A stretch of DNA of 64,000 nt from Thermodesulfobacteriota bacterium (GTDB lineage Bacteria > Desulfobacterota_D > UBA1144 > Nemesobacterales > Nemesobacteraceae), in contig OZ251569.1 of the NCBI GenBank assembly GCA_965243595.1, positions 513,177 through 577,176 of the forward strand. The letters run 5' to 3'. The position numbers and the translations under genes are program-made. The notes under the pieces are model-generated. The model was not told the origin of the DNA. It did no database searches and was given only the letters and a program-made list of their open reading frames with translations. Every line of letters starts with the position of its first letter. Positions within the stretch are counted from its first letter, which is position 1. Positions 2,407 to 44,748 of this stretch are shown one piece after another.

Positions 2407-2462
2407 ATATCGTCAAGGACATCGACTATGAACTGATTTACCAGCTCGACTGCCTTCTGGAA

Positions 2463-20761: not shown

Positions 20762-22131
20762 ATGCCTGAGAGCAATCCTGACCGCCATAGACTAAGATTT
20801 TCCCAGAGATACGGTTTCAAGGGAATTCCCGAACCCGTGAAGCCGGGGGAAATCAGCGAGAAAGCTCGAAAACGGATATGGAACAAGCTGTATGAGTCTG
20901 TGAGATGGGTTTGGAGCTACAACGAAGATTTCTTTAAATATAAGAAGGTGGATGACCCATGGGTCGACATCCTTGCATACCTGTATGACGAATCTTTCGA
21001 ATTGACGTTGGATACGTTCTCACCTTCCTACAACAGGTTTCTTCGGGAATACAAAGACCTTATATGCGGTTCCGACGAAGATGCGTTACCGCCCGAGGAA
21101 CTCCTCGACCTGATTGAAGGGATCATCGCCCATCAGGAGTGTCCTCCGGAATTCGTCAACGACATCGCCGAAACATTCGAAGAATGCCGTCTTCCCTACG
21201 GGGTGAACAAGACCCCTCCGGCGAGCATTTACGTCGCCGAGGACGAAGCGACGCGGAAACTGGCACTGCAACCGGCTCTGGCCGTCTTGGCGGAACCGCG
21301 TTTCGAAGTCGCGGACGAGGAATTTCGAAGTGCCATATACTGGAAAAATATCTGGACGCCTACACCACCGCGCTGAAAGGTCAGCGGTTCGACCTGATGT
21401 ACATCGACGCGTTCGCCGGCACGGGTTCCGTGGAACTGCGTCGGGAAGACTATCGGGGGTTTGTACAGGAATTCATACCCGGTTCGGCGAAGATAGCTGT
21501 GGGAATTGAGAACAAGCCGTTTGACAAGCTGGTTTTCGTTGAACGGGATACCGGCAGGTGCGAGAAGCTGCGGGAGGTCGAGAGGGAAAACCCCGGCAGA
21601 AACATCAGGATAGAAAACCGAGAGGCGAACGAGTTTCTGGTCGGCATGACGGAGAACTGGGGCAACTGGCGGGGCGTGCTTTTTCTGGATCCGTTCGCAA
21701 CTCAGGTTCGGTGGTCGACCGTTGAAAAGATAGCGGGCTTCAATGCGCTCGACACGTGGATTCTCTTTCCGACGTCCGCGGTTTCGCGCATGCTGCCGAT
21801 ATCCAGAAAGCCTGGAGACATCAGCGAGGCGTGGGTCGAGAAGTTGAACAAGGTATACGGCGACGACAGCTGGAAAAATCTTTACGGCAAGAACCCGCAG
21901 TTGCACCTGTTCGGAGTTAAAGAGTACAAACGGACTCACGGCGTCAGCGGGCTTGTGGAAATCTACAAAGATAAGCTCGGGGAGCTTTTCGGCGACAGGT
22001 TCCTTCGAGAGTCCTGCCCTTTGAAAAACTCGAACAACTCGGAGCTGTTCGAATTCCTGTTCTGCGTCGGCAACGAAAGAGGAATCGGTCCCGCGAAAAA
22101 AATCGCTGAACATATTCTGGGGCACATATAA
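20762..22131 (+). CDS. tcmP: TcmP (three-Cys-motif partner protein) family domain preceded by a 204-aa N-terminal region in another frame. There is an apparent +1 frameshift near 21300–21375.
   Basis: The TcmP-like region runs from '...[35 protein letters not shown]...' to the end at 22131. This frame has no ATG, GTG or TTG near the domain start; its upstream part is Arg-rich junk. The other frame (20762–21376) has protein-like composition. Confidence 0.55.
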
Positions 22132-22962: not shown

Positions 22963-23214
22963 TCAATACGCGGTTTCAGTCGGCGTCACGCTTTTGCAAC
23001 CGCGCGTCAACGCCACGTAGAGGTCCCGATGAGTGCCCCAGTTTTTCTCCTGCCAGTCGACATCGCGGACAATCACGGCGTGATCAGACTTGAGTCTCTT
23101 GACCAGGGGACACGGCGCCGAGGAATAGCTGATTTGGAGTTTTGAAGCCGATACCTCGATCAGTCCATCTTTAAAACTTTTCGTCTGGCGCTTGATTTCT
23201 TCCCCATACACCAA
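22963..23214 (-). pseudogene. Remnant of an SF1 helicase C-terminus
   Basis: 'DLYVALTRG' resembles helicase motif VI ('YVAxTRA'). Only 83 aa remain. Confidence 0.3.
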
Positions 23215-23253: not shown

Positions 23254-23583
23254 TTATCCCGGCTCGTCCGAAATCGGATAGCATTCCCCGATGCATTCCG
23301 CCAGAAGACTCTCTATTACGCCGTTGTCGTACTTCACGCCTCGAACGCCGCAGTGGTAATCGCGGTTAAGCTCGGGATGTTCGGGGTTCGCCTCCGGTTC
23401 GTGAGTCGCGCTGAGCCTTCTGTCGTCCGCGCTTTCTGCCTCCCCGTGCTTCTTCATGTGTCCGACGTTGATGATGCCCAGTTCCCCGTCGGGACTGGAG
23501 GCAAGCGGCATGTCTTTCTTCAGATATTCGATTCGGCTCGAGACGTCGTCGCCCTTGATCATGTCGAGGCAGAAGACGGACAA
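23254..23583 (-). CDS. Hypothetical small protein
   Basis: 109-aa ORF with protein-like composition and no motif. Confidence 0.25.
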   Translation of the reverse strand: MSVFCLDMIKGDDVSSRIEYLKKDMPLASSPDGELGIINVGHMKKHGEAESADDRRLSATHEPEANPEHPELNRDYHCGVRGVKYDNGVIESLLAECIGECYPISDEPG

Positions 23584-23694
23584 ATGCTCCTCCCGGGGGC
23601 TTCTCAGGCGAACGGGGCCCGGCTAATACGGCCGTTGTCGTCAATCTTGGAAGAGCCGGCGTAGCGAGCTGTGTCGCTGTCGTCCGGAATCGGG

Positions 23695-24909
23695 TCAGCT
23701 GGCAACGCCGACGCTCCTCAGGAATTTCAGGGCGTTAGGGTTGCAGTTGAGAAAACCCGACACCGATCCGCTCCCTGAAATTCTCAGTATCTTGTCCGCA
23801 AGATCGGAGCATTGATAAAAGAATACGAATTTCAAGGATGATGAGTCCAGAAATTCCAGGGAGAGCACTTCGTCCGGAGAGGATTCCCATTCCGCCACGA
23901 TGTTTCCCTCGTATGTCAAGGCCAGGCCGGGAACCGCTTCTATGCCCGAATCGAAAACCCGCTTCAGAAAGTCGATCAGCCCCCGGTAGGAATCGCCCGA
24001 AAGCGGCAGTTGCCCCAGCCCTTCCGATTCTTCCTCGAGAGCGGCCTCTCTGAGTTCCTCGATTCGGGGTCTTATCCTGTCTTCGATTTCTTTTTCGGAC
24101 AAGCCGCTTCTCAGTTCCCGAAGGTTTCGGCAGAGATCCCGCAGGAACTTCATGGCCTTGGGATGGTGGTCGAGAAAATCCGACACCGAACCGTCGCCCG
24201 AAGTCCTGAGTGTTTTGGAAGAAAGGGAGTCGGGATAGAAAAACACGAATTTCAGTCGGAAGAAGTCCACAAATTCCAGTATGAGAAACTCCTCGTCGGA
24301 AGATTCCCACTCAGCCCTGATGTTTCCCTCATAGGTCAGGTCCAGCTCGGGAACCAGATACATGCCCATATGGACGATTTTGTTCAGAAACCGAGCCAGT
24401 CCCCGGTAGGAATCGTTTGACAACGGCAGCTGTCCCTCCGATTCTTCCTCGAGAGCGGCCTCTCTGAGTTCCTCGATTCGGGGTCTTATCCTGTCTTCGA
24501 TTTCTTTTTCGGACAAGCCGCTCCCCGGTTCCCGAAGGTTGTCGCGCAGCTCCAGGCAAGCGGAGAAACCGTCTTTCTCTGGGGAGGAATTCCCAGCATG
24601 CTCCTGCGACCTTCCGCCGCGGACGACATAGATCCGGGTCGCGAATTCATTGACCTTCACGCGGACGATTCCCTGCCGCTGCAGTTCGGCGAACACCTGG
24701 TCGAGGACACCTTTTTTCGCCCATCTGTTCATGCGGGTATAGACGGTGTGCCAGTTGCCGAAACGTTTCGGCAGTCCTCTCCACTTGCACCCGCTTTCGG
24801 CCACGTAGAGTATGGCATTCAGAAAATCCAGATTGCTCATCTTTACGTTGCCGCGCTGGCGGGGCAGCAAATCCTTGATCCGCTCGTATTGCTGAGGCGT
24901 GAGTTTCAT
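23695..24909 (-). CDS. Chimeric protein: an IS5-family transposase N-terminal HTH (DUF4096-like) followed by two tandem copies of a ~135-aa domain of unknown function
   Basis: N-terminus 'LNAILYVAESGCKWRGLPKRFGNWHTVYTRMNRWAKKG' is IS5/DUF4096-like. Two repeats follow, each containing 'SGLSEKEIEDRIRPRIEELREAALEEESEG..QLPLS.DSYRGL...LTYEGNI.AEWESS...LEF.D...LKFVFFY'. The DNA tandem repeat has a ~404-bp period (e.g. 'gagagcggcctctctgagttcctcgattcgg' at 24047 and 24451). Confidence 0.6.
   Translation of the reverse strand: MKLTPQQYERIKDLLPRQRGNVKMSNLDFLNAILYVAESGCKWRGLPKRFGNWHTVYTRMNRWAKKGVLDQVFAELQRQGIVRVKVNEFATRIYVVRGGRSQEHAGNSSPEKDGFSACLELRDNLREPGSGLSEKEIEDRIRPRIEELREAALEEESEGQLPLSNDSYRGLARFLNKIVHMGMYLVPELDLTYEGNIRAEWESSDEEFLILEFVDFFRLKFVFFYPDSLSSKTLRTSGDGSVSDFLDHHPKAMKFLRDLCRNLRELRSGLSEKEIEDRIRPRIEELREAALEEESEGLGQLPLSGDSYRGLIDFLKRVFDSGIEAVPGLALTYEGNIVAEWESSPDEVLSLEFLDSSSLKFVFFYQCSDLADKILRISGSGSVSGFLNCNPNALKFLRSVGVAS
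23718..24565 (-). repeat. Tandem ~404–420-bp coding duplication inside the chimeric gene; a third diverged copy lies at 31001–31420
   Basis: Direct DNA identity between the two units. About 85% identity to the third copy over stretches such as 'gaaaacccgacaccgatccgctccctgaaattctcag'. Confidence 0.75.
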
Positions 24910-25445
24910 GTCTGAAATTTATCATACGTGATTGACGACAGATAGCGTTAACGTTCTCGTGGTTGCGACGCGAAACGAACCGGGCGCCGCTCGCGGCCGC
25001 CGTGCCGTCGAAAGACGGGAGAGTCGGGGGAGAATCCTGGCTTGATTTTCTTCCGGCGGATGCAGTAATCTGTAATCGGTCAGGATGTGCGTGTCACGAA
25101 GAGATGCCCGGCGGAATTTCACCTGCTTCTGCGTTGCTCGATCAAAAAAGACGGAGACTGGTTCGTAGCGTCCAACGATGCTCTGGACATGGTTGCCCGG
25201 GGAGAAAGCGAACGGAATTCCCGGCGTCATACGATGCAAGGACGGTGAGAGTCGGAACGGTTCGGGATTGAAAGCCGAGACGGCCCGAGTAGCAGTCTGC
25301 AGGTCGGTTCACCGCATCGAGCGGAAGCGGGAATGTAGTGCCACACGGATTTTCCTGTCTCGCAACCCCTTGCAATCTCTCGCTCTTTATTTTTAAACTG
25401 TTCAAAATGAGCCAGGCGCGAGCGGGTGAATCGAAAGAGACGTCA

Positions 25446-26480
25446 ATGACTTCAGACCAGAAACCTTTCTACCCCGGCGGTTCGAAGGCGCGCGTGAACG
25501 CCGCGGGCGACGCTTTGCGCCGCGGCGGGCGGACGGAAGAGGACATGGAGGTTCTGCGTACCTGGCGCGCCGCGCACAGACCGGTTCTGCACGCGTTTTA
25601 CAGGATTCTCCGAAACCGCGTCGGGGACGGAAACGTGATCGTCGCCCAGCGCTACAAGCGCGAGCGCACCATCGTCGACAAGCTCAGGAGACTGCCGCGG
25701 ATGAAGCTCTCCCAGATGAACGACGTCGCGGGGTGCAGGCTGATTTTCGAGAGCATGGACGACCTGTGCGAATTCCGTGCGAAGATGCTCGGTTCGAGAC
25801 TTACCCACGAACTGAAAAACGCCCCCGACAGATACGACTACGTAAAGTCTCCCAAACCGAGCGGCTACAGGGGCGTGCACGATGTCTATTTCTGCGGATC
25901 CGGACCGATGCGCGGGGAACTGCTGGTCGAAGTCCAGTACCGCACGCGCGTTCAGCACGACTGGGCCACGGCCGTCGAAGTGGTCGGATTCGTCACCGAC
26001 AGCCTGCCGAAATTCGGTCGCGGAGACCGCGGATTCCTCGAGATTTTCCGCTGTGCGAGCGAGATACTCGCCCGGGCGTTCGAAAACGAAAGATCGTGTC
26101 TCGCGGACCTGGGCGACGCGGAAGTGGTCCGGGGATTCGACCGGCTCGATTCGGAGCTCGGTCTTCTGCCCATGCTGGAAGGGCTTCGGGCGGCGGCCGA
26201 AGATGTCCCCGCGCGCGAAAACGTGATTCTCGAGTTTCGGGAAGGAGGGCCTGCGATGCGGGGCTTTTCTTCCGCCGCGAGGGCTCTCGAAGCGCTTTTC
26301 TGTCTGGAAGCGAAGAGGCTGTGCGGGGACGTGGTGCTGGTGAGAGCCGCCGGGAACGGAGGAGTGAGGATTGCCTTCAGGAACTATTTTTCCGACGCGC
26401 GGGGGTTCGTCCGAAGAATCCGCGAAGGGCGGTGCCGTCTTCTGGTCGGCGGGAAAGAACAACTCTCCCGTCAAGGTTGA
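25446..26480 (+). CDS. RelA/SpoT-domain nucleotide pyrophosphokinase (toxSAS-like) with a ~130-aa C-terminal extension; possibly a CapRel-type fused toxin-antitoxin
   Basis: 'PFYPGGSKARVNAAGDALRRG' N-terminus, 'SGYRGVHDVYF' and 'LLVEVQYRTRVQHDWATAVE' RelA/SpoT synthetase blocks. No separate small antitoxin gene is adjacent. Confidence 0.75.
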   Translation: MTSDQKPFYPGGSKARVNAAGDALRRGGRTEEDMEVLRTWRAAHRPVLHAFYRILRNRVGDGNVIVAQRYKRERTIVDKLRRLPRMKLSQMNDVAGCRLIFESMDDLCEFRAKMLGSRLTHELKNAPDRYDYVKSPKPSGYRGVHDVYFCGSGPMRGELLVEVQYRTRVQHDWATAVEVVGFVTDSLPKFGRGDRGFLEIFRCASEILARAFENERSCLADLGDAEVVRGFDRLDSELGLLPMLEGLRAAAEDVPARENVILEFREGGPAMRGFSSAARALEALFCLEAKRLCGDVVLVRAAGNGGVRIAFRNYFSDARGFVRRIREGRCRLLVGGKEQLSRQG

Positions 26481-26496
26481 CGGAGCCGAGCTTTGT

Positions 26497-26650
26497 TCAG
26501 CTTTCCAAACCCAGGAATTCTGTAAGACTTTGCGCTTTTCTCTCCACGCGCGCCATGTCTTCGGCCGTCCTGACGTGCCGGATGAACGTTATGCGCCCGA
26601 AAGCCTCCTCGGTGCCGTCCGTCCGCGGCTCTCTCGGGCTCATCGGGAGG
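26497..26650 (-). pseudogene. C-terminal fragment of the small-protein family typified by 28336..28716
   Basis: '...FGRITFIRHVRTAEDMARVERKAQSLTEFLGLES*' versus '...FGRMAFRRLPGRTPADLRRIEERARSLIDFLGLES*'. The upstream part is out of frame or degenerate. Confidence 0.4.
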
Positions 26651-27129
26651 AGACATCTGATGTGCGTGGCGGAAGATGAAGACTCCGCTTGACCGGGATC
26701 GGTATCCGGGGCCGGAATCGGAAAAAGACCGGAAACACGAATTGGCGAAGCCCGAATTGGCGTGTACGTTATTCCGAGGAGGAGAGAAACCGTGAACAAC
26801 GGGAAGAACAGTGGGAGCGATGTCGGAAGCGCTGGCGGCCGGAGTCTCGAGTCGTTGCATCGCAGTTTTTTCAAGCATCCGGATGACGGGAGCTGGAGTG
26901 CGACGCGCTCTCTCGCCCAGCCGTCTTTCCTCAAGCAGATTGACAGTCTCGCGGGCGCGCACAGCACGCCGGCGAGATATTTTTTCAGCCGTGTCCGAGA
27001 ACAGGCGGCAACGCCCGGCCGGTCCGAAGTGCTCCGGGAAACAAGCGACATACCGATCTCCGCCCCGGCTTCGAAGCTGGTCGAGAGTGGAAATTCCGGC
27101 TTTTCTTGCTGAAGCGGGAGGACGAGATG

Positions 27130-27303
27130 AAAGAGAAGAAGGACATGCCCGAAGAGCGGTCGAAAAAGCTGTCCGACGCGAAAAAGAGCCTTGACGACAT
27201 CATGAAGAGAATCGAGCCTTTTCTGCCCGAAAAAACTCAGGTTCTTCACAAGCAGTACAGCGAGTGGAAAAGCGGTGCGTCTTCTTCGGCGAAGTTCGGA
27301 TAA
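27130..27303 (+). CDS. Small ORF sharing its promoter/leader and first ~10 codons (MKEKKDMPEE) with 28336..28716, then diverging
   Basis: DNA 27062–27170 is ~85% identical to 28271–28385. The reading frames differ after codon ~12. Confidence 0.3.
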   Translation, partial: KEKKDMPEERSKKLSDAKKSLDDIMKRIEPFLPEKTQVLHKQYSEWKSGASSSAKFG

Positions 27304-27467
27304 GAGATCGATCCGTTTGCGGGAAGGCCTGAAGCGTCTTGCGGCTTGACCGGACAACCCGTAGGAAAAAACCGCCGTCGGGCGTGTTTCGACCCTTGAG
27401 CGGAAGGCTGGGTTTGCGCATAATGGTTTACAATTACCAGTGAGTTGTCTGAGCAAGGATAGAAAAG

Positions 27468-27761
27468 ATGGAAACCGCCGCGCTTGAGATTGTTCTGCAG
27501 AATATAAAGAGCTTGGAACGGAACATAAAGAGCATAGAAAAGAACCTGGAGAGGGAAATCAAGGAGTTTAAGAGCGATTACAAAACCAGGAACCAGGAAA
27601 TTGACAACAAGTTCGACGGGATCGACAATAAGTTCGACAAGATTGAAAACAAGATTGACAGGCTGACTGAGCGGATGCATCGCAACGAAATGAAAGTCTA
27701 CGGTATTTCTGTAGTCATAGCCCTTGCGGTAAGCGGGGCCGCAAGATATTTCATAAGCTGA
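27468..27761 (+). CDS. XhlA-like small membrane protein (N-terminal coiled coil plus C-terminal transmembrane helix)
   Basis: 97 aa. Repetitive 'IDNKFD' heptad-like coiled coil and a hydrophobic C-terminus 'VYGISVVIALAVSGAA'. Low-GC patch. Confidence 0.4.
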   Translation: METAALEIVLQNIKSLERNIKSIEKNLEREIKEFKSDYKTRNQEIDNKFDGIDNKFDKIENKIDRLTERMHRNEMKVYGISVVIALAVSGAARYFIS

Positions 27762-27949
27762 AAAAGGCTCTTTTGCTTTTCCCCGAAGCGGACTCCCCTG
27801 CAGTCGCGATACGGCCGCGGCCGACGGTTCTTCCCCGATGGACGCGGCGGTCTGTCCGTCTGGATCGAGGGTGCTTTAAATATTTCGTTTTCGCGTTGTT
27901 CCTGTTCGAGTCTGCGGTCTTGGAACTCGAAGGCGCGAGGAACGGTCCG

Positions 27950-28231
27950 ATGAAACGAAAAAACAAGGGAATGTCTTTTGACAGCTGGCTTGACGAAGAA
28001 GGCATCAGGGAAGAAGTCACCGTGGCGGCTCTCAAGCGCGTGCTTGCCCGCCGGATCGCCGCCGAGATGAAACGGGACGGCATTACGAAGACGGAGATGG
28101 CGCGGCGGATGCGAGCCGGCCGCGGCACTCTCGACCGCCTTCTGGACGCGGGAGACGGGTCTGTCACTCTCGCGACCCTGTGCAAGGCCGCTTCGGCGGT
28201 CGGGCGCGAGGTGCGTCTGGACCTCGTGTAG
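27950..28231 (+). CDS. XRE-family HTH DNA-binding protein (antitoxin-like)
   Basis: 'ITKTEMARRMRAGRGTLDRLLD...SVTLATLCKAASAVGREVRLDLV' is a typical HTH_XRE followed by a C-terminal dimerisation tail. ATG at 27950. Confidence 0.6.
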   Translation: MKRKNKGMSFDSWLDEEGIREEVTVAALKRVLARRIAAEMKRDGITKTEMARRMRAGRGTLDRLLDAGDGSVTLATLCKAASAVGREVRLDLV

Positions 28232-28335
28232 ATGGTGTAGGGCGGAATCTCCGCGGGTTTTCGATTTTCGCCACGGCTTCGAAGAACTGATCGAGAGTGG
28301 AAATTCCGGCTTTTTCGCTGAAGCGGAAGGGCGAG

Positions 28336-28716
28336 ATGAAAGAGAAAAAAGACATGCCCGAAGAGAAGCCGTCCGAACGGTTCGAAGAAATCATTCAGGA
28401 CTGGGAGGGCGTCGTCGACGAGGTGTGCGAGGACGAGGGAATCTTCACGGCGCGGCTGTGCGACCTCACTGCCGGCGAAATCTATCCGAGCGAAACCGCG
28501 GAGATTCCGATCGAGGACGTTTCGGACGACGACAGGGAACTGCTTCGTCCGGGCGCGGTGTTCTACCTGACGACGGGCCGGGCGCTTCGCAGTGGCCGGT
28601 GGGAGCTATTCGGACGCATGGCGTTCAGGCGGCTGCCGGGCCGGACGCCGGCCGATCTGCGGCGCATCGAGGAGCGCGCCCGGAGTCTCATCGACTTTCT
28701 GGGTCTGGAAAGCTGA
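28336..28716 (+). CDS. Hypothetical acidic small protein. It founds a local paralog family (a C-terminal copy at 26497–26650 and a shared 5' cassette at 27062–27170).
   Basis: 127 aa from 'MKEKKDMPEE...SLIDFLGLES'. Immediately followed by a fragment homologous to the start of the 387-aa gene family. Confidence 0.45.
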   Translation: MKEKKDMPEEKPSERFEEIIQDWEGVVDEVCEDEGIFTARLCDLTAGEIYPSETAEIPIEDVSDDDRELLRPGAVFYLTTGRALRSGRWELFGRMAFRRLPGRTPADLRRIEERARSLIDFLGLES

Positions 28717-28726
28717 ACGACGCTCC

Positions 28727-28800
28727 GCCTCCGGACGTCGCGGAGGTTTCGCTGATCGGCATGGGCTACGGCGAGTCGATGGTCGTTCGCGTCGGCGGGG
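28727..28800 (+). pseudogene. N-terminal fragment (~25 aa) of the 387-aa protein family
   Basis: 'PDVAEVSLIGMGYGESMVVRVGG' matches the 14.1-kb fragment. The frame then decays into an Arg-rich read-through. Confidence 0.4.
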
Positions 28801-28992
28801 ATGCGTCGCGCGTCTCTGACCGGGCTCCTGTTCACGGGCCAGGATATCCGCTCAGGCGCCGCCGCGTCCGCTTTCTCCGCCGGAAAACCTTCCCGGCGCC
28901 CCGGATTCTTTTTCTTCCGTTGAGTTTGTTTTCCCGCAGACTCTTTCATCCCTGCAATCGGAAGGATTTTTCGGTAAACTTCCACCGTTCCG

Positions 28993-30555
28993 ATGCGAAG
29001 AAAACTCCACATCCTTTTCGTTTCGGCGGCGGCGCTTCTTCTCGCCCCGTCGGCGGGCGGCCTCGAGCTCACCCTGGAGCGCGCGAAGATGCTCGCCCTC
29101 GAGAACAACCGCGACGTGAGAATCGAGATGAGCAACGTCGCCGCCGCCAGAGGCGACCTGCGGGAAAAAAAAGGCGCCTTCGACCCCGTGCTCGACTTCA
29201 CATCCTCCTACAGGGACGCGAAGATTCCCACCAACAGCACCCTCATAGAGGACGGGCGGGAGAGGCGCAAGGTCTTCGCCTTCGGAAGCGAGCTTTCGGG
29301 AAGGCTCCCCACGGGGACGTTCTACAGGCTCTACGACCTTGACGCCAGGAGAACCGAGACCGACTCCCCGCTCGAGTCTCTCTCTCCTTCCTGGAACGCC
29401 TCTCTGGGGTTCAGCGTGGGGCAGGAGATTCTCCGCGGCTTTCCCCTGGGTTCGAATGGTGTGTCGGTCGCGGTTTCGAGGCGGGACAGGAACATGTCGG
29501 TCCACGAGTTCTCGCGCGTGGTGTCGAGGACTCTTCACGAGGTGGAGAGGGACTACTGGAACGTGGCCGCCGCGCGGCGGGACCTCGAGCTTGAGCGAAA
29601 GGCCCTCGAGCTCGCGCGGGATCTCGAGCGCAGAACCAGAACGCAGGTCGAGGTCGGGGTTCTTCCCAGGGTGGCTCTCACGCAGGCGATGTCGGAGACC
29701 GCGGCGCGGCGGGTGACGCTGATAAGTTCGGAAAACGCGCTCGAGCGGGCGAAGGACGTTCTCAAAAACCGCCTCGCCCTTCCTCTCGGGGAGGAGATAG
29801 AGACGGCCGACGTCGCCGCCTCGCCCTACGTCGAGGTCTCCGAGTCCCTGGCTCTCGAGCAGGCGCTCGGAAAGCGCCCGGAGATATCGAGGGCGCGGGA
29901 GGAGGTCGAGAGAAACGAGGCGCTCAAGCGTTTCCGCTCCCGCCAGAGGCTTCCCCGCCTCTCGGTCGAGGGGAGGGTCGACTACGTGGGAGTGGGAGGG
30001 GAGGAGAACCCGGGCAGGATAGTGTTCGGCCCGCAGGACGAAGCCCCCGCGGGTCCGCTTCCCTTCAACGACCCTTCCGACGCGTTCACCAATCTCGTTG
30101 ACCGCAGGTTTCCCGACTGGAGGGTTACGGGAACCTTCAGCTTTCCGCTTTTCAACAGGGCGGCGCGGGGGGCGTACGCGAGGGCCCGGGCGGATCTCGA
30201 CAGGAGCGTGGTGAACTACGAGAAGCGGAAGGACGCCGTGCGCCTCGAGGTGAGAAACGCCGTTCGGGACGTGCGCGACGGGCAAAAGAGAGTCGAGGCC
30301 GCGGCGCTTTCGGTGAAGCTCGCGCGGGAGGTGCTCGGAAACGAGGAGGAGAAGCTAAAGGCCGGACTTTCCACCACCAGGGAGGTGCTCGAGGCGCAGA
30401 GGGACCTCATACGGGCCGAGGCGGGGGAGATAAGGGCCGTTGTCGACTACAACGTCGCTCTTTCGGAGCTTGAGCGGGCCAAGGGGACGATACTCGAGAG
30501 CAACTCCGTGGTTATGGAGGGGTCGGAGGCGGAGGCTTATCTTGAGCTGGAGTGA
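28993..30555 (+). CDS. TolC-like outer membrane efflux protein
   Basis: Signal peptide 'MRRKLHILFVSAAALLLAPSAGG', then repeated coiled-coil/beta-barrel halves typical of the outer membrane factor family. 520 aa. Confidence 0.75.
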   Translation: MRRKLHILFVSAAALLLAPSAGGLELTLERAKMLALENNRDVRIEMSNVAAARGDLREKKGAFDPVLDFTSSYRDAKIPTNSTLIEDGRERRKVFAFGSELSGRLPTGTFYRLYDLDARRTETDSPLESLSPSWNASLGFSVGQEILRGFPLGSNGVSVAVSRRDRNMSVHEFSRVVSRTLHEVERDYWNVAAARRDLELERKALELARDLERRTRTQVEVGVLPRVALTQAMSETAARRVTLISSENALERAKDVLKNRLALPLGEEIETADVAASPYVEVSESLALEQALGKRPEISRAREEVERNEALKRFRSRQRLPRLSVEGRVDYVGVGGEENPGRIVFGPQDEAPAGPLPFNDPSDAFTNLVDRRFPDWRVTGTFSFPLFNRAARGAYARARADLDRSVVNYEKRKDAVRLEVRNAVRDVRDGQKRVEAAALSVKLAREVLGNEEEKLKAGLSTTREVLEAQRDLIRAEAGEIRAVVDYNVALSELERAKGTILESNSVVMEGSEAEAYLELE

Positions 30556-31000
30556 GTTTTTTTGCTGCACCGAAAATATCTTTCCGTTATCCGGCAGGTA
30601 AATATCCCCCCGCTTGCGCCAAGGATTTCTGTTGGGGTGCCCGTATTGTTTCCCAATGTTTGCGAAGCGCGAAAAACGGCCTCTTGTAGTGTCTCATGAA
30701 AAATGAAATCCTGTAATGTCAGTATGTTGCAACTCTAAACCGCCGAACTCGGGATACCTTTGGCCGCCTATGAGTGTCGAATGAAGGCCGTTGAAAACTA
30801 CCGCGGGCCGTCTGACCGTAGCGGTTGGACCAAGACGCGACGAAGGTTTTTTCTTTCACGGTTTCGGCCGTTCCTTCCCATTACTGAAGCGTCTCCCGGG
30901 ATGTTCTCCTGCAATCTTTCCAGGTTGGAAAAAGAGTCGCCCGCGGGGGAATGGACGGCTCCTTCGTTTCGCGTCTGGCGTTTCTCCGCCGCCGTCATCA

Positions 31001-31420
31001 CTAACCGCAAGACCGGGTTTCCGACGCCTCCGCAAGGCTTCGCAGAAACTCCGCGGCTCTGGGATGGTCGTCGAGAAAGCCCGACACCGCTCCGCTTCCC
31101 GAAATTCTCAGCACCTTGCCCGGCGAGCCGGGATCCGGACGGAAAAACACGAATCTCATGCGGTCCCTGCCCAGGAATTCAAGAGCGAGTCTCTCGTCGG
31201 GAGAACGGCGCCACTTCGCTTTTAGGTTTCCCCTGTACGTCAGGAACAGGCTGGGAATCATGTCCAATCCCCGCGCCGCGAGGTCGCGGAGAAAGTCGAA
31301 AAGTTCCCTGCGGGAGTCGTCCGAAAGCGGCAGTTGTCCCTCCTCCGCTTCCTCGAGAGCGATTTTTGAAAGCTCCGCTATTCTGGTCCTGATTCTGTCG
31401 GGAATTCGGAAAGCGTCCAT
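31001..31420 (-). CDS. Standalone copy of the ~135-aa domain of unknown function that occurs in tandem in 23695..24909
   Basis: 'MDAFRIPDRIRTRIAELSKIALEEAEEGQLPLSDDSRRELFDFL...LTYRGNLKAKWRRSPDERLALEFLGRDRMRFVFFRPD...ISGSGAVSGFLDDHP'. Starts ~35 nt after the ankyrin gene stop. Confidence 0.6.
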   Translation of the reverse strand: MDAFRIPDRIRTRIAELSKIALEEAEEGQLPLSDDSRRELFDFLRDLAARGLDMIPSLFLTYRGNLKAKWRRSPDERLALEFLGRDRMRFVFFRPDPGSPGKVLRISGSGAVSGFLDDHPRAAEFLRSLAEASETRSCG

Positions 31421-31455: not shown

Positions 31456-32787
31456 CTACGCGGTTTCCAGCAGTTCGCACATTTCCCTGTCGAGTTTTTC
31501 CTTTGCGATGTCCAGGGGAGAGAGACCGTCCCTGTTTCTGGTGTTCGCGTCGCCTCCCCGCGTCAGGAGAAGAGACGCCACTTCCGGGTTTCCTTCTGAC
31601 GCGGCCGCGTGAAGGGCGGTCCGGCCGCTTTCGTCTCCGGCGTTCACGTCGGCTCCCTTTTCTATCAGCGCTTCCGCTCCTTGCGCGTTTCCCGCGTATG
31701 AAGCGTAGTAGAGGGGAGTCTTTCCGGTTCTGCTTCTGGCGCCGACATCCGCCCCTTTCTCCATCAGGAGGAGCGCCGTCCGGCGCCTGTCCCCGAACAG
31801 GGCGTAGTGGAGGGGTGTCCGTCCGCTTTCGTCTTCGACGTTCACCTCCGCCCCCGCCGTTATGAGAACGTCGGCGGCCCGATGCTTCCCCCTGAACAGG
31901 GCGGCCTGAAGAGGAGTCAGGCCGTTTTTTCCCCTGGCTTCGATGTCGCTCCCCGACCCCAGGAGAATTTCCGCGACATCCGCCATGCCCTTGCGCGAAG
32001 CGTGGTGAAGAGGGGTGTCGCCCTCGTCGTCCCTGGAATTCACGTCCGTTCCGGCTTCTATCAGAACGCGCACGGCCCCGGTTCTTCCCCTGCGCAGGGC
32101 GACGCTCAGGGGAGTCCGGCCGTTTTCGTCCCTGGCGTCGACGTCGGCTCCCGCCTTTACGAGGAAAGCCGCCGTTTCCGCCCTTCCCTTGTGCGCGGCG
32201 GCGTGAAGGGGGGTCCATCCGCTCTTGTTTCGCGCATTCACGTCGGCTCCCGCTTCCACGAGAAAGGCCGCCGTTTGCGCGTGTCCCGCGATCGAGGCGT
32301 CGTGAAGCGGGGTCGTGCCGGTTTCGTCTTCGGCTTCCACTCTCGCCCCCGCCTTTATGAGAATCCCGGCGACTTCCGTGTTTCCCCTGTACGAAGCGAA
32401 GTGGAGGGGGGTCGTGCCGATTTCGTCCTTGGCGGTCATGTCGGCTCCCGCCTTTACGAGGAAAGCCGCCGTTTGCGCGTGTCCCGCGATCGAAGCGAAA
32501 TCGAGAGGAGTTCCCCCGTACCTGTTTTCGGCGTTGACCTCCGCTCCGGCCTTCACCAGGGAAGACACTTTTTCCTCGTTCCCTTCAAGCGAAGCCATGT
32601 GAACGGGTTCGGTGCCGTACTTGGCCGGCGCGTTCGCGGATTTCCCGAGGAGAAAGCACATCGCTCCCGTGTTTCCCTTGCAGAAAGCCCTGTTAAGAAA
32701 GATTCTGCCGTTTTTGCCGTTCGGCATTTGCGTCTGCTCTCGTCTTGCTGGAACGCGGAACAGGAACTTTTTTCGCTTTTCCCGCAA
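31456..32787 (-). CDS. Ankyrin-repeat protein (~11 repeats)
   Basis: Repeated 'G.TPLH.A...GH...V..LL..GADVNA' units throughout. The N-terminal start is uncertain. Confidence 0.8.
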   Translation of the reverse strand: MREKRKKFLFRVPARREQTQMPNGKNGRIFLNRAFCKGNTGAMCFLLGKSANAPAKYGTEPVHMASLEGNEEKVSSLVKAGAEVNAENRYGGTPLDFASIAGHAQTAAFLVKAGADMTAKDEIGTTPLHFASYRGNTEVAGILIKAGARVEAEDETGTTPLHDASIAGHAQTAAFLVEAGADVNARNKSGWTPLHAAAHKGRAETAAFLVKAGADVDARDENGRTPLSVALRRGRTGAVRVLIEAGTDVNSRDDEGDTPLHHASRKGMADVAEILLGSGSDIEARGKNGLTPLQAALFRGKHRAADVLITAGAEVNVEDESGRTPLHYALFGDRRRTALLLMEKGADVGARSRTGKTPLYYASYAGNAQGAEALIEKGADVNAGDESGRTALHAAASEGNPEVASLLLTRGGDANTRNRDGLSPLDIAKEKLDREMCELLETA

Positions 32788-39102: not shown

Positions 39103-39235
39103 TTTGATTCGCTCTCCTCGCGATACGGAGCTTACCAAGAATACCATACCGCCGCGTTTTCGGATCTGAAAACGCGACCGTTGAATATCCCGACGCGTGA
39201 AGGGAAACAAGCTTCCCCCGGAAAAATTACGGAAG

Positions 39236-39309
39236 AGCGGGCGACGGGATTCGAACCCGCGACCCTTAGCTTGGGAAGCTAATGCTCTGGCCAGCTGAGC
39301 TACACCCGC
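39236..39309 (-). tRNA. tRNA-Gly (anticodon CCC)
   Basis: Cloverleaf read by eye: acceptor GCGGGTG/CGCCCGC, D-arm TAGCTCAGCTGG, anticodon loop TT-CCC-AA, T-arm GGTTCGAATCC. CCA is not encoded. Confidence 0.8.
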
Positions 39310-43012: not shown

Positions 43013-44748
43013 CCCTCCACCCCGTCGACTGGATTCTCGTTGGCTGCTACCTTCTATTCTCCCTCGGGGTCGGCTTCTGGTTCTCGAAAAGGGCGTCGGG
43101 AAGCGTCTCCTCCTACTTCGTTTCGGGCAGGAAGCTTCCCTGGTGGCTTCTCGGAACCTCCATGGTCGCCACCACCTTCGCCGCCGACACCCCGCTGGCC
43201 GTGACGGGATGGATAAGGACGGAAGGCATATGGAAGAACTGGTTCTGGTGGAACTACGCGTTCAGCCACGCTCTCGTGATAATCGTTTTCTCCAGGCTCT
43301 GGAGGAGGGCGGAGGTGGTGACCGACAACGAGCTCATAGAGCTTCGCTACGGGGGTCGGCCCGCCGCGTTTCTTCGGGGGTTCAAGGCGTTTTACTTCTC
43401 CACCGTCTTCAACTTCATAGTCATGGGATGGGTGATAACCGCCATGACCAAGGTGTTTTCGGTCTTTTTCGGAGTGGGGCAGATATACGCGGTGTGTCTC
43501 TGCGTGGGGATAGTGCTCGTCTACACGGTCTTCTCCGGCCTCTGGGGGGTGGTGGTGACGGATTTCGTCCAGTACGCCATAGCCCTTCTCGCCACCGCGG
43601 CCCTGGCGGCGGCGGTGATAAACTCGGACGCCGTCGGGGGGTACTCGCAGTTTCTCGCGAAAATAGGGGAGCTCGACCCCGCGACGACCGCCATGTTCAT
43701 ATCCCCTCCCTCCGAAGGCGGGGAGTTTTTCTCTTCCGACTTTTTCACCTTCGCCGTGTTCATGACCGTGGTCTGGTGGTCTTCCCACAACGCCGACGGC
43801 GGCGGCTACTTCATCCAGCGCCTGTGCTCTGCGAAGGACGAGCGCCACGCGCTGTGGGGAACGGCGTGGTTCGCGCTCAACCACTACGTGCTCCGCTTCT
43901 GGCCCTGGGTGCTCGTGGCCCTCGCCTCGGTCGCCGTCTTTCCCGACGCCCGCGCCGCGGGGGGAGACGACGAGGCCATGTATCTCGTGATGATAAACGA
44001 GTTTCTCTCGCCCGGCCTCCGCGGTCTTCTGCTGGTTTCCTTCCTGGCGGCGTTCATGTCGACGGTCTCCACGCATCTCAACTGGGGAGCTTCCTACATA
44101 GTGAACGACGTGTACGGAAGGTTCGTGCGGAGAAACGCCCCGCAGGAGCATTACGTGCTCGTCTCCAGGATAGCCACCGTGGCCCTGGCCGTCTGCGCCG
44201 GGGCGGTGGCCCTGCGGATAAAGAACATAGGAGACGCGTGGATATTCCTCTGGGCCATGAGCTCGGGCATAGGACTCGTTCTCATTCTGAGGTGGTTCTG
44301 GTGGCGGATAAACGCGTGGAGCGAGATAGCGGCCCTGGGGTCTTCGCTCGTCGCGATGACCGTCATCGTTCTCTGGGCGGGCGCCTCGGGGACGCCGCTT
44401 GAGCTCAGGCACCAGATACTGGTCGTCCCGGTGTCCATAGCGTGCTGGGTCGCGGCCACCTTCCTAACCGCTCCTGAGTCCCCGGAGAAGCTCCGCGCCT
44501 TCTGCGAGAGGGTGAGACCGCCGGGGTTCTGGTCCCCGGTGCGCCCTCGGGCGTCCGCGTCCGAAGAGCGGGCGGGCTTCGGGGGAATCGTTCTCAACTG
44601 GATTCTGGCGGCGTCCTTTCTTCTCTGCCTCATGCTCGGGACCGGAAAGCTGCTTCTCGGCGAGACGGCCTCCGCCCTCGGGCTTCTGGCGGTCTCCGCC
44701 CTGGGGCTCGCGGCGGTCGTCGTCCGCCGCCGCGGGTTTTTCCCCTAG
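43009..44748 (+). CDS. Sodium:solute symporter (SSS) family transporter
   Basis: ATGA start/stop overlap with the nagZ-like gene. About 13 predicted transmembrane segments with SSS-like 'GRKLPWWLLGTSMVATTFAADTPLAVTG'. Confidence 0.75.
   Translation: MTLHPVDWILVGCYLLFSLGVGFWFSKRASGSVSSYFVSGRKLPWWLLGTSMVATTFAADTPLAVTGWIRTEGIWKNWFWWNYAFSHALVIIVFSRLWRRAEVVTDNELIELRYGGRPAAFLRGFKAFYFSTVFNFIVMGWVITAMTKVFSVFFGVGQIYAVCLCVGIVLVYTVFSGLWGVVVTDFVQYAIALLATAALAAAVINSDAVGGYSQFLAKIGELDPATTAMFISPPSEGGEFFSSDFFTFAVFMTVVWWSSHNADGGGYFIQRLCSAKDERHALWGTAWFALNHYVLRFWPWVLVALASVAVFPDARAAGGDDEAMYLVMINEFLSPGLRGLLLVSFLAAFMSTVSTHLNWGASYIVNDVYGRFVRRNAPQEHYVLVSRIATVALAVCAGAVALRIKNIGDAWIFLWAMSSGIGLVLILRWFWWRINAWSEIAALGSSLVAMTVIVLWAGASGTPLELRHQILVVPVSIACWVAATFLTAPESPEKLRAFCERVRPPGFWSPVRPRASASEERAGFGGIVLNWILAASFLLCLMLGTGKLLLGETASALGLLAVSALGLAAVVVRRRGFFP

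Follow-up and report, generated by a model that had tools for sequence, protein, structure and literature searches.

The 64-kb stretch of DNA analysed here (the window) carries three copies of a ~135-aa domain that forms the conserved C-terminal part of a large protein family, B, and a B gene lies directly upstream of a second small gene, C, in every locus in which C was examined (~12 loci). We infer that B and C form a pair resembling a toxin-antitoxin or abortive-infection module, in which the B-domain would bind and control C, and we give this reading a chance somewhat short of even. Two of the copies, u1 and u2, lie within one ORF (locus 1), and the third, u3, stands alone behind an ankyrin-repeat gene (locus 2).

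Three copies of the B-domain in the window

Searching the window with the family profile recovered the three copies that an earlier note on this DNA had described and no further ones, and the motifs quoted in that note match conserved columns of the family. Features are given below by window coordinates.

23254-23706, minus strand: gene C, ~150 aa; TTG start overlaps the stop of the fusion ORF; split by a 1-nt deletion (C5 to C4 in a run at ~23618)
23695-24909, minus strand: fusion ORF, the B gene of locus 1, 404 aa; IS5-type HTH remnant, u1 and u2
23698-24126, minus strand: unit u2, 143 aa; profile match 23704-24099, E 7.3e-61; P0019/P0022 lineage
24020-24139, unstranded: copy of the 120-nt tract at the start of u2; repeat family D3, 414-nt spacing
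24127-24540, minus strand: unit u1, 138 aa; profile match 24124-24513, E 1.7e-62; P0018/L009 lineage
24434-24553, unstranded: 120-nt tract at the start of u1, 92% identical to 24020-24139; recombination or gene-conversion tract
24691-24903, minus strand: DUF4096 HTH (fusion residues 3-73); Pfam PF13340, E 1.2e-22, positions 1-76 of 76
31001-31420, minus strand: unit u3, stand-alone ORF of 139 aa; profile match E 9.6e-76
31104-31119, unstranded: cross-over interval of u3, within conserved R-x-S-G codons
31456-32787, minus strand: ankyrin gene, 443 aa; 11 Pfam Ank matches, E 8e-84

The copies are less alike than the ~85% DNA identity first estimated by eye: u1 and u2 share 75%, and u3 shares 61-62% with either of them. 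Repeat search placed u1 and u2 at a spacing of 414 bp (family D3) rather than the ~404 bp of the earlier note, and TRF called no tandem repeat on them. Amino acid identity between the u1 and u2 cores is only 60%, whereas the value is 88% between the u1 core and P0018, a single-domain protein, and 86% between the u2 core and P0019. At the DNA level u1 is 87% identical to the B gene of locus L009 and 85% identical to the B' gene of L004, and L017 and L018 span u2 and the DNA 3' of it at 99.3% identity. Outside the 120-nt tract, u1 and u2 are 69-72% identical. The earlier view of recent paralogs arising by tandem amplification does not fit these values for the cores, nor the hybrid make-up of u3 described below; u1 and u2 come instead from different old B lineages that recombination brought together, fused in frame via the common 120-nt tract.

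The in-frame joining of a DUF4096 HTH to two domain copies was confirmed by Pfam and the ORF list. The N-terminus of the fusion matched the IS5 transposase model NF033580 at positions 4-84 of 258 only, scoring 85 bits against a cut-off of 110 bits, and the ORF contains no DDE domain; because the match is partial and below the cut-off, we take the HTH, which corresponds to the first (N-terminal) third of an IS5-family transposase, to be a remnant. No second DUF4096 HTH was found in the window or in the fetched loci, save in the L008 ortholog described next. The variable N-terminus of B has been replaced at this locus by the IS5 remnant. An assembly artefact was ruled out by the presence of the same HTH, u1 and u2 ORF on an independent contig from another metagenome assembly (L008; P0016, 402 aa, 91% DNA identity), and L017 and L018 speak against an artefact too for the part from u2 onward. 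Between the two ORFs dN/dS is 0.39 overall, 0.33-0.39 in the units and 0.85 in the linker from HTH to u1, and 101 substitutions have produced 0 stops against a neutral expectation of 4.25 (P~0.014).

At locus 2, u3 begins 35 nt past the stop of the ankyrin gene, with GGAG 9 nt 5' of its ATG, which bears out the earlier description of a single-domain ORF closely following an 11-repeat ankyrin gene; it has neither a variable N-terminus nor a C partner. Orthologs of u3 lie downstream of an Ank gene in L001 and L002, where the order purH-DUF3800-Ank-B is kept, and Ank-linked B copies are retained in at least three genomes with dN/dS of 0.41-0.46 (0.95 between u3 and copy A of L002). In L002 a B copy also comes directly after a Fic gene, the two overlapping by 4 nt. 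Comparing u3 with the two L002 paralogs, we counted 105 Ank-linked, 4 Fic-linked and 5 other informative sites upstream of the cross-over interval, and 28 Fic-linked and 1 Ank-linked site downstream of it; the flank downstream of u3, through the OEP gene, is of the Fic-linked type (94%). This pattern indicates that u3 is a clean hybrid of Ank-linked and Fic-linked B paralogs that arose by a ~5.6-kb deletion between them.

The B family and its fold

A full HMMER search with the domain yielded 935 cluster representatives (E≤1e-3). Most members are proteins of ~250 aa (usual form ~225-320 aa) with the domain at the C-terminus, preceded by a hypervariable extension of ~110 aa (median 107 aa); 70 of 123 such N-termini had no BLAST relative among the rest of the set. 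The N-terminal part is replaceable: the fusion ORF and its L008 ortholog carry an IS5 HTH there, P0023 carries HNH+TPR, and u3 lacks it altogether. Arg and Trp residues are conserved in the domain. It had no match in Pfam, NCBIfam or the PDB (Pfam-A was scanned at E≤1 with u1, u3 and the fusion ORF and at E≤0.01 with 68 relatives), in keeping with the earlier judgement that no confident family assignment could be made. Viral contigs and phage records yielded no homologs.

The AlphaFold2 model of the B-domain (pLDDT 91) has helices packed against a five-stranded antiparallel sheet. Foldseek against the PDB (E≤10) returned no significant structural neighbour, all matches having E > 0.01; the best were the MotA DNA-binding domain (E 0.02-0.04, TM 0.41-0.50), Pur-alpha and Sub1/PC4, at rmsd >5 Å, with type III secretion chaperones scoring about alike. 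B-domains evolve at dN/dS of 0.33-0.46, compared with 0.14-0.17 for purH, OEP and DUF5131, and values near 0.4 are also compatible with slowly decaying genes.

Gene C and its coupling to B

The C profile matched the window in two frames, at 23610-23702 (profile positions 2-32) in one and at 23266-23610 (positions 33-142) in the other. The alignment of L017 with the window spans 1490 nt at 99.3% identity and contains a single gap, and the C gene of L017 is intact (P0284, 150 aa); because the lesion is a single homopolymer indel relative to this nearly identical intact copy, the frameshift in the window may be an assembly error. C is degenerate in L007.

C starts within the end of B or 0-2 nt after it in L004, L005, L006, L009, L010, L012, L013, L014, L017/L018, a Thiocystis contig and the window, and the B-C junction is visible at the contig end in L008 and L015. 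The pair thus consists of two small co-directional genes with overlapping or abutting stop and start, as is typical of toxin-antitoxin modules, and in the window the fusion ORF has remained translationally coupled to C. At least six B-domains occur without C (u1 and u3 of the window, L001, both copies of L002, and L007 3333-3710), and every C gene examined has B upstream; this gene order and asymmetry of orphans come from about a dozen loci, several of them of one clade. On a Rhizobium plasmid, a gene distantly resembling C (30% identity) stands alone. B-domain and C divergence are correlated over 36 locus pairs (r=0.91), as simple co-inheritance would also produce.

An Arg, a Ser and two His residues are invariant in C, which matched nothing in Pfam, NCBIfam, PADLOC or PDB sequences. 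Its AlphaFold2 model (pLDDT 87) had a best PDB Foldseek E of 0.43 (top matches 0.4-0.7), and the ADP-ribosyltransferase toxins RhsP2 and DarT aligned to it with TM of 0.33-0.38 only.

Genomic setting and comparison with known systems

A gene of ~220 aa, A, often precedes B, and in the clade of the window an Agp-like HNH/TPR/GreAB-C/PIN giant can stand in for A. Such giants (~2000 aa, with HTH_upstream_double_PIN, PIN-TPR-GreABC and permuted GreAB-C domains) lie directly upstream of B-C in L004, L009 and L014. Neighbours include AbiJ, TcmP/DUF5131, RelA_SpoT and DUF3800 in the window, KAP NTPase, RelA_SpoT and AbiJ-HEPN in L007, and a DncV-like NTase in L017, and the Thiocystis pair is surrounded by HicAB, Phd/PIN and a DUF499/DUF1156/SNF2 island. 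The B-C pair thus sits amid toxin-antitoxin and anti-phage genes. The immunity or defence setting suggested earlier is therefore upheld as far as a conflict/defence island and orphan copies resembling immunity or antitoxin genes are concerned, and finds no support for polymorphic-toxin immunity, since no neighbouring gene has a secretion or trafficking domain.

The upstream genes were Ank, Fic (DUF4172), the IS5 remnant, A and the HNH/TPR/PIN giant, with no variable toxin tip of the kind expected in a polymorphic-toxin cassette. The domain gene lay directly downstream of a candidate toxin gene only in L002 (Fic), and in the standard cassette it lies upstream of C. The earlier suggestion of a SUKH-like domain found no backing: no SUKH (SMI1/KNR4) model of Pfam-A or NCBIfam was matched (searches as above), and no SUKH structure was among the best 50 PDB Foldseek matches (E≤10), none of which was significant. 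SUKH and other polymorphic-toxin immunity proteins resemble the B-domain in being small alpha+beta proteins with multiple paralogs and orphans that recombine, but the B-domain has no sequence or structure match to them and no secreted toxin, and a typical B carries a long variable part at its N-terminal end and is followed by a conserved partner gene.

Type II toxin-antitoxin modules whose antitoxins are modular or promiscuous (Panacea/PanA, PMC8832971; NetFlax, PMC10440598) offer a closer parallel: the small genes overlap and are co-directional, B-C lies beside other toxin-antitoxin pairs in defence islands, parts outside the conserved B-domain are swappable, and B also occurs as an orphan or near Fic, Ank or an Agp-like giant while C was never alone in the loci examined. 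Unlike those modules, B and C resemble neither Panacea/DUF4065 nor any catalogued antitoxin or toxin in sequence or fold, a DNA-binding domain cannot be recognised in most B proteins, and a third gene, A, is frequent.

The B-domain weakly matches PDC-M32A (window E 2.2e-5; 15 of 68 relatives, best 5.5e-6), a component of a two-gene phage-defence candidate that PADLOC lists from a 'guilt-by-embedding' prediction (bioRxiv 10.1101/2024.01.29.577857). Both occur as two-gene cassettes within or beside BREX/DISARM/RM-type systems, but the match covers only positions 257-328 of 375, and neither C nor A matched PADLOC, so no PDC-M32B partner is present; because C has no PADLOC match, we regard B-C as a distinct cassette that has no more than a distant domain in common with PDC-M32. 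The giants of L004, L009 and L014 recall the Bab/Agp amyloid Abi system (bioRxiv 10.1101/2024.11.07.622273) and TPR-GreAB-C-PIN systems (PF20698/PF24388/PF24407), but the window has no giant, and neither B nor C is related to Bab. Local alignment of B N-termini with the adjacent giants, whose own N-termini are cut by contig or locus ends, reached E 0.012 at best and brought out no amyloid-type motif common to both.

Proposed mechanism and alternative readings

As a toxin-antitoxin-like module, the pair would have C as candidate effector and the B-domain as the part that binds and restrains it, with the variable N-terminus of B as an exchangeable regulatory or sensing part. Domain-only copies would then be orphan antitoxin-like genes, harmless, under weak constraint and possibly cross-protective; orphan antitoxins are common in genomes (PMC7192599). 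A broader version, which we consider doubtful, is that B-C with optional A constitutes a widespread toxin-antitoxin or anti-phage module novel in all its parts, with a fast-diversifying N-terminal sensor or decoy joined to an undescribed C-neutralising fold, the domain being re-used promiscuously, alone or in new fusions, as a guard near Fic, ankyrin, Agp-like giants and IS debris, and shuffled by homologous recombination among paralogs.

B could conversely be a positive regulator, the sensor-adaptor of an abortive-infection system whose N-terminus senses phage and whose domain switches on C (and A or the giant). The hypervariable N-termini beside a conserved domain, the linkage of B-C in three loci to an Agp-like protein (Agp serves as sensor in a proven Abi system, bioRxiv 10.1101/2024.11.07.622273), and the weak resemblance to PDC-M32A all suit this account, which we nonetheless think rather unlikely: domain-only, IS5-HTH and HNH/TPR copies persist under constraint, a poor fit with an essential sensing N-terminus, alignment of B N-termini with the truncated giants brought out no common motif, and no homologs came from viral contigs or phage records. 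A nucleic-acid-binding module, with B as transcriptional or RNA regulator of the cassette, would agree with the best-scoring Foldseek matches, the conserved Arg and Trp and the fusion to an HTH. The shared layout of helices on a five-stranded antiparallel sheet with the MotA C-terminal 'double-wing' and Pur-alpha/PC4 is a resemblance that gives no basis for homology (E 0.02-0.08, TM 0.27-0.50, 9-17% identity), secretion chaperones score as well, and the HTH is an accidental IS remnant of this lineage only, making this reading distinctly improbable.

An immunity-protein array, possibly SUKH-like, belonging to a polymorphic-toxin locus or to one for contact-dependent competition, is the most improbable reading of all. 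Several paralogs, orphans, inter-copy recombination, nearby IS debris and the L002 copy adjoining Fic are what such an array would show, but the upstream genes encode no Rhs, LXG, PAAR, HINT, haemagglutinin or other secretion-linked domain, the gene constantly paired with the domain is small, of cytoplasmic type and downstream rather than a toxin upstream, SUKH is absent from sequence and fold matches, and the typical member carries a 110-aa variable N-terminus where immunity proteins are compact. That the three window copies are functionless debris of decayed cassettes, too young to be lost, is also improbable, if less so. The frameshifted C of the window and the degenerate one of L007, the partner-less deletion hybrid u3, the IS-derived fusion N-terminus and the dN/dS of the linker and of u3 against L002 copy A speak for decay; against it stand a fusion ORF intact in two lineages 9% apart with constrained units and few odds of escaping stops by chance, Ank-linked copies kept in at least three genomes at dN/dS of 0.41-0.46, and a C lesion that may belong to the assembly.

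Significance

If the toxin-antitoxin-like inference holds, B-C would be an unannotated cassette missed by the current defence and toxin-antitoxin catalogues (Pfam, NCBIfam and PADLOC), comprising about 935 B clusters, at least 125 C clusters and at least 564 A clusters, in which the B-domain and C have confident models and no recognisable fold neighbour. The window also provides a clean natural example of module remodelling, in which recombination between paralogs removed 5.6 kb and made hybrid and fused genes that were kept under selection. Such remodelling shows that the N-terminus of B is dispensable and the domain is not, which gives experimenters a minimal construct.

The domain units in the window

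The domain occurs in two loci of the window, as two units (u1 and u2) inside one fusion ORF and as a stand-alone gene (u3), and a further gene, C, directly follows the fusion ORF:

23695-24909, minus strand: fusion ORF of 404 aa (IS5-type HTH remnant, u1 and u2)
24127-24540, minus strand: u1, cut from the 404-aa ORF at a repeated 'NLRE..' motif
23698-24126, minus strand: u2, cut from the 404-aa ORF at the same motif
31001-31420, minus strand: u3, stand-alone ORF of 139 aa
23254-23706, minus strand: C of locus 1, its TTG start at 23706 overlapping the fusion ORF stop (23695-23697)

The family profile matched u1, u2 and u3, the three copies of the earlier note (E-values of 1.7e-62, 7.3e-61 and 9.6e-76, respectively), and nothing else in the window, and both u1 and u2 could be aligned with u3 over the whole length. 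The IS5-transposase helix-turn-helix (HTH) remnant reported ahead of the tandem units was recovered as a DUF4096 HTH at residues 1-73 of the fusion ORF (E-value 1.2e-22); since it covers only positions 4-84 of the 258 in the IS5 transposase model, the DDE domain is missing and what is left is a remnant. The position of u3 behind an ankyrin-repeat gene was also reproduced, with its start 35 nt past the stop of an 11-repeat Ank gene and a GGAG ahead of the start.

The description of the units as recent paralogs with about 85% DNA identity and a period of about 404 bp had to be revised. Measured DNA identity was 75% between u1 and u2 and 61-62% between u3 and either of them, the spacing was 414 nt, and the 414-bp repeat was not called by Tandem Repeats Finder because its copies are too diverged. 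Nor are u1 and u2 fresh duplicates of each other: the u1 core is 88% identical in amino acids to P0018 (a single-domain protein of 258 aa) and the u2 core 86% identical to P0019, while u1 and u2 are only 60% identical. They are near-identical only in their first 120 nt (92%), which marks a tract of recombination or gene conversion. The tandem arrangement is not an assembly artefact: the independent contig L008, from another metagenome, has the identical order of HTH, u1 and u2 in an ORF of 402 aa (91% DNA identity) adjoining the RelA_SpoT gene as in the window, and u2 together with the DNA downstream of it recurs in L017 and L018 (99.3% identity). No contig on record was returned when the window's fusion protein and the 109-aa fragment of its C were looked up as exact sequences.

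A hybrid gene at locus 2

Contig L002 carries two copies of the domain in the gene order purH-DUF3800-Ank-copyA-HATPase-375aa-Fic-copyB-OEP, and u3 was scored at all sites where copyA and copyB differ. From its start codon to 31119, u3 has 105 sites of copyA type, 4 of copyB type and 5 of neither; from 31104 to its stop, 28 are of copyB type and 1 is of copyA type, and the downstream flank into the OEP gene is of copyB type (94%). From this site pattern and the copyB-type flank we conclude that u3 is a hybrid, whose cross-over fell within the conserved R-x-S-G codons and removed about 5.6 kb. The adjacent Ank gene (31456-32787, minus strand) scored strongly, through its repeats, against PADLOC PDC-M72A (2e-74) and Legionella Ank effector models; all of these matches fell far short of their cut-offs and were not taken as functional evidence.

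Family, fold and distribution of the domain

None of the units had a match in Pfam, NCBIfam or PDB sequence. Only 15 close relatives came out of a word-indexed search, and their alignment was used as the query for an exhaustive HMMER search; this returned 935 cluster representatives at E ≤ 1e-3, including 172 at E ≤ 1e-10. The domain is almost always C-terminal in its protein, here termed B (median extension: 107 aa N-terminal, 8 aa C-terminal). The N-terminal regions of B are hypervariable (70 of 123 without a BLAST relative among the others) and replaceable, being an IS5 HTH in the window, HNH and TPR domains in P0023 and nothing in u3, and a Pfam scan of 68 relatives found no recurrent domain. 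The Pfam, NCBIfam and PADLOC scans (units, 68 relatives, A, C) and the PDB sequence-profile searches (A, B, C) yielded no usable result, the sole exception being a weak partial match of the domain to PADLOC PDC-M32A (E-value 2.2e-5; profile positions 257-328 of 375), seen in 15 of the 68 relatives. PDC-M32 is a two-gene defence candidate from 'guilt-by-embedding' in BREX, DISARM and RM loci, and is a prediction only (bioRxiv 10.1101/2024.01.29.577857).

The AlphaFold2 model of the domain was confident (pLDDT 91, pTM 0.84), and is built of a pair of helices, an antiparallel sheet of five strands and a helix at the C-terminus. R13, S36, W70, R105, S107 and G108 are invariant residues of the domain. 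No Foldseek match in the PDB reached E ≤ 0.001; the top ones (E 0.02-0.5) were the C-terminal domain of T4 MotA, Pur-alpha, Sub1/PC4 and type III secretion chaperones; against BFVD there was no significant neighbour, only uncharacterised viral proteins at E of about 1e-3 to 1e-2.

A degenerate peptide pattern searched against 185,579 species genomes hit one locus only, in a Thermodesulfobacteriota MAG; the broader family alignment was too diverse for pattern construction. Metagenome scanning gave 4 loci, the viral-contig scan none, and phage records held no relative. Plasmids and phages searched by tblastn with B and C yielded nothing beyond one distant C-like gene, which stands alone on two Rhizobium plasmids.

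Partner genes C and A

When the window was compared with the fetched loci, the DNA directly downstream of B proved to be conserved as well. It codes for C (about 150 aa), whose start overlaps or abuts the B stop in L004, L005, L006, L009, L010, L012, L013, L014, L017, L018, an 18.9-kb Thiocystis contig and the window; the two genes are translationally coupled. A third gene, A (about 220 aa), lies upstream of B and overlaps it in L005, L010, L011, L012 and L013, and the match lists of C and A have 19 contig sizes in common. Neither A nor C matched Pfam, NCBIfam, PADLOC or PDB sequences, and mutual homology of A, the B-domain and C was rejected (hhalign probability <1%). Named members, all 'hypothetical protein', come from Gammaproteobacteria, Thiocystis and one Nitrososphaera MAG. 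C has invariant or near-invariant residues (R10, A28-F29, L38-S39, H96-x-P98 and H112) and a confident structure model (pLDDT 87) with no significant Foldseek neighbour in the PDB, the ADP-ribosyltransferase toxins RhsP2 and DarT appearing only at E of about 0.6 (TM 0.33-0.38).

In the window, C is split over two frames (23610-23702 and 23266-23610). Over 1490 nt aligned with L017 (99.3% identity) the single gap is one C missing from a C5 run at about 23618, and the L017 counterpart is an intact 150-aa protein (P0284); the frameshift reflects either inactivation in the very recent past or an assembly error in the homopolymer. Next to C on its downstream side, an 83-aa ORF (22963-23214, minus strand) without family assignment is about 99% conserved in L017 and L018, where it is called as an 83-aa gene. 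In L007, the C gene after B (P0024; 8524-8805) lacks the conserved C-terminal His motif and is thus degenerate, and a second, u1-like B-domain copy (3333-3710) lies 4 kb off without any C.

Genomic setting

The region at about 20.7-33.7 kb also holds an HTH_37 gene, DUF3800 and the following genes:

20762-21376, plus strand: AbiJ_NTD4-only protein, 204 aa
21139-22802, plus strand: TcmP and DUF5131 pair (TIGR04474 6e-43, DUF5131 3e-95), left edge of the variable region
25338-26480, plus strand: RelA_SpoT nucleotidyltransferase-domain protein, 380 aa (E-value 5.7e-13), divergent from the fusion ORF

The AbiJ copy looks truncated, since its L007 ortholog has 314 aa with a DUF7014/HEPN C-terminal domain. 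In L007 and L008, too, the RelA_SpoT gene lies beside the B locus, and by analogy of size and setting its product recalls toxic small alarmone synthetases or fused CapRel-type defence proteins. Defence-type neighbours elsewhere include a KAP NTPase and AbiJ-HEPN in L007 (a Thermodesulfobacteriota MAG) and a DncV-like NTase near the L017 locus. In L008 a 2.1-kb insertion (960-3056, against window 25095-25222) separates the fusion ORF from the RelA_SpoT gene and carries an AAA_21/AAA_15 ATPase gene; the site looks like a hotspot of defence-gene gain and loss. In Thiocystis a B-C pair without A is flanked by HicAB and Phd/PIN and belongs to a DUF499/DUF1156-methylase/SNF2 island.

Directly upstream of B-C in L004, L009 and L014 is a protein of about 2000 aa (HNH/TPR/HTH_upstream_double_PIN/PIN-TPR-GreABC). 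Its domain set matches that of Agp in Bab/Agp, an abortive-infection system shown by experiment (bioRxiv 10.1101/2024.11.07.622273). We looked for A hidden within these Agp-like giants, and for a Bab/Agp-like motif common to them and the B N-termini, and found neither in the sequence at hand, in which contig or locus ends truncate the giants N-terminally.

Scans for promoters and terminators near the two loci gave nothing above shuffled expectation. Between the loci, a 55-nt direct repeat (27102-27156 and 28311-28365, 89% identical) was found; small ORFs at 27106-27303 and 28297-28716 share the start MKEKKDMPEE, and the end of the latter (...DFLGLES) resembles that of a minus-strand ORF at 26497-27456 (...EFLGLES), so that these ORFs look like another small paralogous family. 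A tRNA-Arg(gcg) called by ARAGORN (44468-44546, plus strand) is absent from Rfam at gathering score; on tRNA-Gly(ccc) (39235-39309) both agree.

Functional interpretation

Our preferred reading, tentative and rated at somewhat under an even chance, takes B and C for a pair of the toxin-antitoxin-like or abortive-infection kind. C would act as the effector, the B-domain would bind and restrain it, and domain-only genes would serve as orphan antitoxin-like copies; orphan antitoxins are abundant (PMC7192599). In organisation B-C is similar to type II toxin-antitoxin modules whose antitoxins are modular or promiscuous (Panacea, PMC8832971). In the loci examined no C lacked a B, whereas B-domains exist without C; the co-divergence of B-domain and C (r=0.91) was not counted as evidence for interaction. 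The main rival takes the same parts and makes B an activating sensor-adaptor, which we consider unlikely, if a serious contender.

That the window copies are mere debris is improbable and is contradicted by the preserved ORFs: the fusion ORF is open despite 101 substitutions, for which neutrality predicts about 4.25 stop-creating changes (P~0.014). Measured against its L008 counterpart, dN/dS in this ORF was 0.28 for the HTH, 0.85 for the linker, 0.39 for u1 and 0.33 for u2; among the Ank-linked copies (window, L001, L002) it was 0.41-0.46, next to 0.34 for Ank and 0.14-0.17 for purH, OEP and DUF5131. The B-domain genes are under moderate purifying selection. A nucleic-acid-binding role, suggested by the non-significant fold matches of the model, is quite improbable, and the likeness to polymorphic-toxin immunity proteins, possibly SUKH-like, that the earlier note raised is very improbable, as this reading does not pass the tests that define it.

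The B-C pair is outside every catalogued family; A, B and C have no sequence neighbour, and the two modelled proteins (B-domain and C) no structural one. It offers a lead to an unannotated gene cassette, and the loci a clean example of paralog recombination remodelling defence-island genes.
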